Shown piece by piece: positions 16,613 to 19,185 of a stretch of 64,000 nt of DNA. The notes under the pieces are model-generated. The model made no database searches. It saw only the letters and a program-made list of their open reading frames with translations, and was not told where the DNA came from. Source of the DNA: Lingula anatina (Eukaryota; Animalia; Brachiopoda). Each line of letters opens with the position of its first letter. The stretch's first letter is position 1. Location: the NCBI GenBank assembly GCA_051362555.1, contig CM120641.1:47436401-47500400 (forward strand). The letters are read 5' to 3'. The position numbers and the translations under genes were made by a program.

Positions 16613-19185
16613 GAAATAGAGAATAACCCCCAACACCACCAAGTGCCACCCCCCCCATACCCTACCCTACACCTGTATTGTGCAAGTTTACTTCAAATTC
16701 AGAAAAATATGCATATAATTTTTTTAAAATAATGATAAAAAAAAATTATCAGCTTAAAGATTTTTTTATATTTTTGCTTTAAAGCTTACTTACTTCATAG
16801 ATCTACTAATGACCACGTTTATCACAGAGGGGTTGGACTTTTCTTCAAGCCCCGTTTCTTCCCAAGTTACTTTGCCTTTAATATGGACACACTTCTTGCC
16901 TGAAGATATATAACCAATCTGAATACCTTTAATCAATAATCTTCACACCACTGTTTCATCGATCTGTAAAAGTGCCTGTATAAGTCGGTGCCTGGTAATA
17001 GTCTTAAACCTTAAAAACCACACAGATATTTATACCTACATACCTGGATCACTCACATCAGAAGTCAGGTTTATGTAATGCTCATAGTCTCCTCTGCAAA
17101 CAAAAGCAATATAATGTTTTAAAATCTGATCTGATAAAAGGCTTTAAATTTGACAAAATACATTTAAAATCTTTTTGATAAATACTTTGCAGTTCTCTCT
17201 AACCAGTTACATGTTGCTAATGAATAAATTTGGAGCGGAATCATAATATTGTAATTTATAATTAATTGATGAATGATAATAATTCATGTGCTATATAAAT
17301 CTCAATAGATTACACAGGTAGCTAGGATACATTATTACAACTTAACAGTGACACGATAGAAGTACTTCACAGACTGAAAAGAACCTTCTAACAGAAGTAA
17401 TTGGTGCGCTCTGATTTTGAAAAAGTGCATGCAATATACTATAAAATACATGAACATGACTGACAAAAGGGATCATTTATTTAAAATATTATAGAAATCA
17501 CAAAAAGAAAAATTATAAAAAAACATGGTGTGTATTTTTTGTTAAGTCTCTATAGAATGATTTACTTTTTTATCACGATTATACAAGAAACTATGCAAAA
17601 AAATCTACTTTATATTACGTATATTGTATACATAAAATGTGTCGTTATATAACAAGTGAATATAACCTCATATTTCTGGGTTACCCACAGCCCTGTTGTT
17701 CACTTACAATACAGCATGAGCTATTCTTTTGCAATATTAAATTACTTTCAATGTGTGCAAGCATTATTCATTTTTTTCAAACAGTATCTTTACCAATAAT
17801 AGGCATATGGACCATGTATTTTATAACATTCTTAATGGTTTTAATAAGCAATAAAATAATGATAAATATTTGTAGAAAGGTTACACTAATATGCTTACAG
17901 AAAATTAAGTGCTGTTTCTTACAACCATTTCCATTTTACCAAATACGTCAATGGCATGCACCCAGTGGTTACCCTCTCCCAGGGTGACAGATTGATTTTT
18001 CACAAGATATTCACAGATATTTATGTCTTAAGATAAATAGACAGTCATTTGATTCTCTGGCTTTTTGAAAATTGGCCAATAATATCTGCTACCCTGGTAG
18101 AGAGTACCAGTGGTTATGGGATCTCATCAGCATGTCTGTGTCATTTTGAATAACTTCATTCTTCCACATGTTCAACAGTAGAAGCCATGTTTTTATGCTG
18201 TTTGAAATTTAGGATAATCAAATTTCATTTTTTTTTTCATTAATCAGTAAGTGGCATCACACTTTCAGACAGTTACATACTAGTATTGATACAAAATCAC
18301 AGAGCTCTTGTGAAGAATTTTGAAATCATGGATCTGATTGGCATAGAACTCAAGGCATGAAGTATTTGGTCAGAAGGTACAGGAAACGGCAGAACTGTGG
18401 TGATGATAAGAGTTTCCAGTGATACTGCTATTCTGGGTACTATACAATCATAATATGTGAAAACCAGAAAATATGAATCATTTCACTGGCTTTTCTGTAC
18501 TCCAGAATGCAATATAAGAAAATGTTGAACCCTAGCTCTACTTCACAAGTTTTTGGGTAAAAGAATATTTTAAGAGAAACTTATGGAGTAGAGAGTTCTA
18601 CCAATGTTATCACCACTACTAAACTGAACCAGTAAAAGGAACAGTGCATAAGGCATTTTGGTATCAAATCTTATTATTTTCAGTCTCTGCGTACATCTGA
18701 AAGATATGCCACTTCCATGTCAAAAGATATCCGTTGCTGAACTTGCAATGCAAAGTGAAATGGCAAAGAATTGATGTGATCATTCATTTATTATAGCTAA
18801 AAGAAAGTGAAGTGAAAAGTAGTCTGAAAAATGTCTATTTATAAATGTCTACTTAGAAAGGTATATCTGGATTTTAAAAAATGACAGTGATGATTAGTGA
18901 GTACTTAAAAGAATTGTTGAGGATATGTACACCAAGTTAATTCAATTTTTAGGCCAAAACCCCATGCCTTGTCTCTGATATGCACACAAAGAAAAAAGAA
19001 ATAAAATGAAAACATCCAGACTGGTTTAGAAAAGCAAGGGTGTTACAGCAGCTCTCTACTACACATATGCCCACATATATGATGTATTGTACTTACTTAA
19101 TGTAAGGCCATGCTATTCTTCCATTTTTGCCTATCCCTCTATTATTGCACATAGCAGCACATATACTGAAGTACCTTCCCCTAAC
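15602..19185 (-). CDS. Second, divergent DHFR-fold unit (194 aa); 6 exons, no start codon of its own; probably the C-terminal domain of a tandem DHFR isoform
   Basis: Exons 19185-19097, 17093-17044, 16899-16794, 16485-16359, 16125-16016, 15704-15602. All are GT-AG, open, and have the same intron phases as the upstream DHFR. Translation: [194 protein letters not shown]. Confidence 0.88.
16582..16611 (+). repeat. Poly-G tract (30 G) in an intron of the second DHFR unit
   Basis: Read directly; it produces the spurious poly-Gly ORF 16502..16732. Confidence 0.9.

Follow-up and report, generated by a model that had tools for sequence, protein, structure and literature searches.

The 64-kb window of Lingula anatina DNA analysed here (the whole stretch considered) holds an intron-containing animal dihydrofolate reductase (DHFR) locus, in which 12 minus-strand exons with GT-AG boundaries make up two DHFR-like units. 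Unit 1 (22012-20056, minus strand) encodes a canonical DHFR of 185 amino acids (aa), and unit 2 (19185-15602, minus strand) is a six-exon relative lying behind it. Unit 2 belongs to a real and ancient subfamily, a variant form of a familiar enzyme that seems not to have been described before, with a function that we infer. A preliminary description of unit 2 had suggested selective loss of the pocket for the p-aminobenzoate (pABA) and glutamate parts of folate, with cofactor and pterin contacts kept, and this pattern recurs across the 26 variant domains that we compared. We therefore set out below the case for unit 2 as a conserved DHFR paralogue that, with about an even chance in our judgement, uses NADPH to reduce an unconjugated 7,8-dihydropterin, with dihydrobiopterin the likeliest substrate.

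Residues are given in human DHFR numbering, taken from an alignment to human and other animal DHFRs. Unit 2 retains A9, G15-I16-G17-K18, G20, W24, D30, T38, G53, K54, T56, S76, R77, G116, G117, T136, D145 and T146; the catalytic residues of a canonical enzyme (acid at 30, T136 and W24) and the NADPH motifs (G53-K/R54-x-T56, S76-R77 and G116-G117) are all present. Segment 58-70 has its canonical length, with no indel, and carries S59E, I60T, P61G, N64E, R65K, P66S, L67N and R70V, and further changes are Y31, F34Y and M52K together with Q35I, N48C, V50H, K55V and V115M, five that the preliminary description had not mentioned. Absent, then, are the conserved glutamate-binding R70 (V70 here) and the hydrophobic pABA pocket, in which F34, I60, P61 and L67 have become Y34, T60, G61 and N67. 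Every residue that the preliminary description had listed as retained or replaced was borne out by the alignment, although two of its interpretations were not. M52 (M42 in E. coli), which it counted as part of the pABA-site change, is described as distal to the active site and as part of the hydride-transfer network (PMC8697555), and Y121F is no subfamily-wide specificity change, given that tyrosine is found in 18 of 24 members and phenylalanine in 10 of 122 canonical DHFRs. In DHFR itself the active-site acid binds N3 and NA2 of the pterin, an arginine binds the glutamate and a phenylalanine stacks on pABA (PMC10191325), with Arg70, Gln35 and Asn64 touching the folate tail (PMC7435474). Amongst 58 positions that are invariant in five canonical animal DHFRs, unit 2 loses 10 of 14 within 48-70 compared with 15 of 44 outside (Fisher p=0.028, the interval 48-70 having been picked after inspection of the alignment). 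Eighteen positions are lost in both the Lingula and the scallop copies (hypergeometric p=4e-5), with the same new residue at nine of them. For the analysis of the subfamily, the remaining positions were sorted into pterin, NADPH, pABA and tail classes, partly according to their presumed roles in DHFR structures.

With the database protein for unit 2 (P0004) as query we obtained 42 matches among 74 candidates, the best of which was a scallop (Mizuhopecten) protein (47% identity, 170 bits) that ranked ahead of all canonical DHFRs and shares the odd motif. The scallop canonical and variant genes lie on contigs of the same listed size, and one GenBank model fuses them. A profile built from the Lingula and scallop variants was run against 1.84 billion representatives, giving 39 proteins at E <=1e-30, and the best 150 were examined. 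Pooled with the earlier matches these yielded 206 domains: 158 carry M52 together with R70, and the other 48 lack at least one of them. The subfamily consists of 26 of these 48, taken by motif and score; the exclusions were a duplicate (P0050), three fragments or degenerate domains (the second domains of P0055 and P0082, and P0189), seven further divergent DHFRs, and eleven rows with an incomplete or faulty alignment or a canonical sequence except at 52. Its intact domains thus number at least 26, and besides Lingula the named sources are annelids, bivalves, one gastropod and one bryozoan; 15 of the 26 carry no taxon, and what we say about range rests on the named members, all of which are lophotrochozoan. 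The ten best profile matches include Ylistrum (a fused isoform and a stand-alone protein), Paralvinella (fused, 379 aa), Lamellibrachia (fused, 375 aa), Watersipora (fused, 365 aa), Sinanodonta and Haliotis (both stand-alone) and three unnamed records (two fused, one single). Stand-alone members of 186-200 aa occur in scallop (XP_021379387), abalone (XP_067653695) and freshwater mussel, and databases label members as DHFR, DHFR-like or hypothetical. An ESM Atlas search returned generic DHFR clusters only, and a PDB sequence search with the subfamily profile gave vertebrate DHFRs as best matches, with no closer solved member among the best 60. We found no description of the subfamily in the literature searched, where coverage of subscription papers was thin, so its absence is unproven. 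A metagenome locus (L001, 2438-2953) that shares one peptide proved to be a canonical DHFR on a 56-kb contig among virus-like genes and was set aside.

Retention by residue class was compared between the 26 variant domains and 43 canonical ones, with up to 122 canonical domains used for per-site counts. Pterin and catalytic positions are kept at 92% in variants and 97% in canonical domains, and NADPH positions at 88% and 96%, whereas pABA positions fall to 14% (canonical 95%) and glutamate-tail positions to 21% (canonical 85%). An acid at 30, R/K54 and S/T76 are each present in 26/26 variants and, in the rows that could be scored, so are W24 (25/25), A9 (24/24), G116 and G117 (24/24 each) and T136 (23/23). 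The pABA wall, on the other hand, has almost disappeared: I/V/L60 is found in 0/26 variants (119/122 canonical domains), P61 in 1/26, P66 in 0/25 and L67 in 3/25. Gains relative to the canonical domains include K/R52 (19/26 against 0/122), Y34 (20/26 against 2/122) and an acid at 64 (17/25 against 1/109), and K/R65 is retained in 17/26. The counts at 52 and 70 are partly circular, since variants were chosen for lacking R70 or M52 and canonical domains for having both; the others are not. Net charge of segment 58-70 is -1.0 in the variants compared with +1.9 in canonical domains. Mean entropy within this segment is 2.51 against 1.25, and outside it 1.70 against 1.52 and 2.00 against 2.03. Given that entropy is doubled inside 58-70 and alike outside, the tail pocket has for the most part been freed from constraint, with a partial new consensus of K/R52, Y34, E58, T60, E64 and V70, whilst the chemical half of the site has been held.

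In a tree of 22 rows, the Lingula and scallop variants grouped together with support of 100/100 on a stem of 0.88, the canonical genes of both species did so at 98/95, and uniting the two Lingula units in one clade was rejected (approximately unbiased test, p-AU 0.00016). In a tree of 64 rows the 26 variants, with P0189 and the divergent P0203, lay on one side of a branch supported at 92/99 (the bootstrap was not fully settled), and the terminal branch of Lingula unit 2 measured 0.47 compared with a median of 0.58. As judged from these trees, unit 2 is an ancient paralogue, older than the brachiopod-mollusc split, and did not arise by remodelling of the Lingula gene next to it. Brachiopods, molluscs and annelids had separated in or before the Cambrian. 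A pseudogene or recent decayed duplicate of unit 1 is ruled out by the tree test and by the intact orthologues, and a processed retrocopy or pseudogene of the DHFR2 type by the five GT-AG introns, the open frame and the 39% identity to unit 1. The earlier preference for neofunctionalisation over decay thus stands: a preset test for decay of the orthologues came out the opposite way, several phyla between them having at least 26 domains that are intact. Six further DHFR-like proteins without R70 (P0083, P0092, P0099, P0101, P0115 and P0201) fell on the canonical side of the 64-row tree, and the tail arginine has therefore been lost more than once.

The gene structure of the two units is also informative. 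Their intron phases are identical (2, 1, 2, 0, 2) and their exon lengths nearly equal (unit 1/unit 2: 86/89, 50/50, 106/106, 124/127 and 113/110), so unit 2 arose by duplication of DNA rather than by retrocopying. The frame of unit 2 is open over 194 codons in six GT-AG exons, in agreement with the intact six-exon reading frame first reported for it; the range originally given, 16794..19185, does contain a real DHFR unit but covers exons 1-3 only, with the unit extending to 15602. One exon of the locus, used as query, was 100% identical to dihydrofolate reductase isoform X1 of Lingula anatina. Database records for the locus comprise P0001 (unit 1, 185 aa), P0004 (unit 2, 183 aa, with an internal Met start) and P0005 (fused, 386 aa), and the window differs from them at 2/183 residues in unit 1 and 1/194 in unit 2, the unit 2 introns being GT-AG in the window and in RefSeq alike. 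Unit 2 is 39% identical to unit 1, 34-39% to canonical animal DHFRs and 47% to its scallop orthologue, and blastn between the genomic DNA of the two units gave no match of at least 40 bases. P0004 matches PF00186 (DHFR_1) at 65.8 bits, against a gathering cut-off of 25. Scanning P0005 gave PF00186 alone, with no C-terminal thymidylate synthase domain, an NCBIfam scan gave sub-threshold bacterial Dfr models only, and an Rfam scan of 12000-24000 gave no match. Used alone as a query, exon 4 of unit 2 found no match, since the cluster representatives do not include the RefSeq protein.

Structure prediction, which had been proposed as a check, gave a DHFR fold for the scallop orthologue and for each half of the Lingula fusion. 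For the scallop protein, the AlphaFold model (pLDDT 95.3, from a 38-row alignment) has a TM score of 0.85-0.89 to human DHFR, which was also its best Foldseek match (E 4e-20). In the model of the Lingula fusion both domains fold (pLDDT 85), and a pTM of 0.56 fixes no domain arrangement. A complex prediction for the scallop canonical and variant DHFRs scored 0.00 with alignments unused, and has no bearing on binding either way.

How unit 2 is expressed was assessed using RNA reads from four Lingula runs mapped to 14500-20200 (6, 6, 25 and 6% of each run sampled; 741 mapped reads in X1, 643 in X2, 69 in X4 and 180 in X7), with a splice joint listed only if it had at least three reads. Stranded depth is unspliced and continuous from unit 1 exon 6 past the stop codon to about 17556, at 7-89 in X1 and 4-59 in X2, and is near 0 below; in the bins of the later unit 2 exons it is 0-1.4 (X1) and 0-2.7 (X2). 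The major mRNA is therefore a single-domain DHFR with a 3' untranslated region (UTR) of about 2.5 kb, and AATAAA occurs at 17481, 18792, 19199 and 19700. Splicing at 16898/17043 in unit 2 was seen in four reads of X2 and in none of the other three runs, compared with 47 reads for the unit 1 exon 5-6 splice, and unit 2 transcripts amount to roughly a tenth of unit 1 mRNA or less in the sampled RNA. A two-domain fusion is ruled out as the main product in these four runs, since the mRNA stops before unit 2, and is at most a minor isoform there. To call unit 2 a second domain is thus apt in that a DHFR-fold unit lies behind a canonical DHFR, but not for the major mRNA, which is single-domain.

In-frame stops lie immediately 5' of the exon 1 acceptor of unit 2 and its first Met comes only at position 10, whilst the codons before this Met match the first strand of the subfamily (F4 in 12/26, I6 in 14/26, A9 in 24/24 non-gap rows). 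If translated whole, unit 2 must therefore be entered by a splice. The donor at 20065 scores 4.4 compared with 7.6-11.7 for the 10 other donors of the locus, on which the matrix was trained. Seven candidates in 20200-19230 have a donor score above 3, and a Met-bearing frame leads into just two of them, this one and a weaker neighbour within the same exon, 12 bases upstream. No Met-bearing phase-0 exon was found in the 879-nt gap between the units. Elsewhere, 11 two-domain proteins, all with the canonical domain first, join directly after the same EVYEK-type motif, and 5 of the 10 that were aligned have no Met before the first strand of the second domain. Their N-terminal domains form the lophotrochozoan canonical clade (96/94), two short-contig records grouping with annelids (91/93). 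The fused proteins of these two records, of 379 and 359 aa, sit on contigs of only 3182 and 2598 bases, which suggests that the two records are spliced transcripts.

Given that NADPH binding, the acid, T136 and W24 are kept and the pABA-glutamate contacts are gone, a reductase of a tail-less pterin is the simplest reading of unit 2. DHFR is known to reduce dihydrobiopterin (BH2) to tetrahydrobiopterin (BH4) in the salvage pathway (PMC13249053), which makes dihydrobiopterin the first candidate, with neopterin-type or pigment pterins as close alternatives. Such an enzyme would bind and protonate the 2-amino-4-oxo-pterin ring in the manner of DHFR, using D30, T136, W24 and the backbone near A9, and would position NADPH for the transfer of hydride to C6 through G53-K/R54-T56, S76 and G116-G117. 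The tail channel, emptied, polar and net acidic, would disfavour glutamate, whilst the gained K/R52, Y34 and T60 may grip a short polar side chain at C6, the positive charge having shifted from R70 towards the ring. In Lingula one promoter would serve both units, exon 6 being mostly read to its stop to give the 185-aa DHFR and long 3' UTR, and a minority splice from 20065 to 19185 would give a two-domain protein of 377 aa, with unit 2 as residues 184-377. Folate recycling and biopterin salvage, the two known jobs of DHFR, might in this way be split between two domains. More broadly, and with rather less than even confidence, we suggest that lophotrochozoans have an unrecognised family whose origin precedes the divergence of annelids, molluscs, brachiopods and bryozoans and which arose from DHFR as an unconjugated-pterin reductase insensitive to classical antifolates, and that a donor at the end of DHFR, shared across these phyla, toggles between DHFR and a folate-plus-pterin two-domain reductase.

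Several observations weigh against a pterin reductase expressed in this manner. The substrate is deduced from features that are absent, and the partial circularity of the counts at 52 and 70 affects two of the positions concerned. R70 is kept in 3/26 variants, K/R52 is missing in 7/26 and R77 is kept in only 6/26. As M52 is described as part of the network supporting hydride transfer (PMC8697555), K52 could lower activity. When columns 25-37 and 48-70 are left out the tree is unresolved (four label changes), although a single clade of 27 is not rejected (p-AU 0.92). The fusion joint 20065/19185 is missing from the joints listed for the four RNA runs, an absence that at a three-read threshold is no exclusion; the sole unit 2 joint has four reads in one run, and exon 4 is without depth. 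Most fused proteins are gene-model predictions, which can be wrong, and P0085, a relative, carries an unrelated repetitive tail spliced on at this motif too, so predictors can over-use the EVYEK donor.

These points bear on three other explanations. The domain may be a DHFR-fold module of little or no activity which, by binding NADPH and pterin, senses for or regulates the canonical DHFR beside it, at the level of protein or RNA. Its position adjoining or fused to a canonical DHFR in 11 proteins, the very low expression of unit 2 in Lingula and the replacement of M52 would fit such a role, as would the precedent of human DHFR2, a copy whose main role may be non-enzymatic (PMC10884974). A binding-only module need not, however, keep the acid in 26/26 members along with invariant T136, W24 and the G116-G117 pair, and stand-alone members exist in scallop, abalone and freshwater mussel; we consider this explanation unlikely. 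Of the two branches in the preliminary description, reductase or pseudoenzyme, a pure pseudoenzyme is, given the universal acid, the less likely. We likewise think it unlikely that unit 2 is a folate reductase of low affinity or antifolate insensitivity, in which K52 or K/R65 replaces R70 as the anchor for the glutamate carboxylate. The intact catalytic core would allow this, as would the frequencies of K/R65 and K/R52 and the retention of R70 in three of the 26 members, and changes at 31, 34, 70 and 115 are known in methotrexate-resistant human DHFR (PMC7435474). But the whole hydrophobic pABA wall has been lost, segment 58-70 is net acidic with doubled entropy, and the adjoining canonical DHFR is far more highly expressed.

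The subfamily could also be real and the Lingula copy itself start-less and decaying, its few reads being non-productive read-through from unit 1, which we regard as quite improbable. The lack of a start codon before the first strand or of a Met-bearing exon in the intervening gap, a RefSeq model (P0004) that begins at Met10 without the first strand, the near-absent depth over downstream exons and the unlisted fusion joint are all in keeping with decay. Yet the six-exon frame is open in both the window and RefSeq, with fewer residue differences between them than unit 1 has, all residues conserved in the subfamily are kept and the branch is not long. The same lack of Met in half of the aligned two-domain proteins fits expression by fusion.

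Known systems offer partial parallels to unit 2. Animal DHFR (EC 1.5.1.3, PF00186; human DHFR, PDB 1DHF and 6VCJ) shares its fold (from the scallop model), Pfam match, catalytic acid, NADPH motifs and intron phases; unit 2 differs in lacking R70 and the hydrophobic pABA wall, in having K52 and Y34, and in its tandem or fused position behind a canonical DHFR. DmrA, the dihydromethanopterin reductase of Methylobacterium extorquens, is a functional analogy, being a DHFR homologue that, following duplication, took on another pterin substrate while still using NADPH (PMC6193120). DmrA, which we liken to unit 2 by description rather than by sequence comparison, is however bacterial, has a substrate with a long tail of another kind, and is modelled with a seven-residue insertion and the loss of two strands rather than substitutions at 52-70 (PMC6193120). 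Human DHFR2 (DHFRL1) is, like unit 2, a second animal DHFR gene with little detectable protein, but is 92% identical to DHFR (PMC10884974), whereas unit 2 has introns, shares less than 40% identity with unit 1 and is older than the divergence of several phyla. In the bifunctional DHFR-thymidylate synthase of protists and plants the DHFR domain is N-terminal in a two-domain protein, as in the Lingula fusion, whose second domain is, in contrast, itself of DHFR fold. Human DHFR2 is a recent retrocopy.

The tail-binding arginine of animal DHFR, a textbook enzyme, has been treated as a fixed feature, and a large animal clade keeps a second form in which the catalytic half is held as tightly as in DHFR and the tail pocket discarded. 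If this form is a dedicated reductase of dihydrobiopterin or pigment pterins, molluscs and annelids would have an extra enzyme in the salvage of tetrahydrobiopterin, which serves monoamine and nitric oxide synthesis. It would also offer a naturally occurring test of how specificity for folate and for pterin is kept apart in DHFR.

Table. Exons and transcript features of the two DHFR units in the window
Feature	Position	Strand	Remarks
Unit 1 exon 1, start codon included	21927..22012	-	Matches RefSeq XP_013387146.1 (P0001)
Unit 1 exon 2	21462..21511	-	
Unit 1 exon 3, canonical M52, I60-P61, P66-L67, R70	21136..21241	-	
Unit 1 exon 4	20764..20887	-	
Unit 1 exon 5	20305..20417	-	Exon 5-6 splice supported by 47 X1 and 47 X2 reads (loose ends at 20137)
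Unit 1 exon 6, coding part and stop	20056..20134	-	Weak internal phase-0 donor after 20065, past EVYEK
Long 3' UTR of the major single-domain mRNA	17556..20055	-	Spans unit 2 exon 1 and ends in the first unit 2 intron; end approximate
Unit 2 exon 1 (strand beta-A, A9, GIG loop, W24)	19097..19185	-	Phase-0 acceptor
Unit 2 exon 2 (D30, Y31, Y34, I35, T38)	17044..17093	-	Joint 16898/17043 in 4 X2 reads
Unit 2 exon 3, remodelled pocket (C48, H50, K52, 58-70 without R70)	16794..16899	-	G53, K54, T56, S76, R77 retained
Unit 2 exon 4 (M115, G116, G117)	16359..16485	-	Zero read depth in 4/4 runs
Unit 2 exon 5 (T136, D145, T146)	16016..16125	-	
Unit 2 exon 6 and stop codon	15602..15704	-	Low read depth, X2 only

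A number of smaller features of the locus were also recorded. The motif ending at the catalytic acid (PMC10191325 for the motif), encoded in unit 2 by exons 1 and 2, has eight residues, the human length, in 24 of 26 subfamily members, compared with seven in Lingula unit 1. The human polyproline change in this loop is dated to about 325 million years ago (PMC8697555), so the insertion that gave the subfamily its eight-residue form may be older or have happened independently. Unit 1 exon 3 has a second acceptor 27 bases further upstream (21242-21269, minus strand), which adds nine residues in P0005, an insert that is of low confidence in the model. RefSeq also holds a second, truncated near-copy of Lingula unit 1, of 139 aa, on another scaffold (P0002, XP_013409720.1). 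The RNA reads carry two variants in unit 2 exon 1, both amino-acid-changing and conservative, at 19145 (9/43 in X2), where the variant agrees with the RefSeq protein, and at 19164 (38/38 in X1 and 33/43 in X2). Within the DHFR 3' UTR, 17970-18080 is a short repeat element with reads on both strands and many loose ends in all four runs.

Head to head with DHFR, and starting about 360 bases from its start codon, is a gene for a DEAD-box helicase with an RGG-rich tail (22372-30257, plus strand), which appears similar to DDX21/DDX50; with the two starts so arranged, the promoter is likely to be bidirectional. Downstream of unit 2 lies a zinc-finger gene with an open exon of 487 codons (10444-12500, minus strand), presumably similar to NocA/elbow/ZNF703. 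Two open stretches at 39895-41139 (minus strand) appear similar to interferon regulatory factor DNA-binding domains. An open frame of 352 codons at 61726-62784 (minus strand) contains repeated acidic Trp-Leu motifs.

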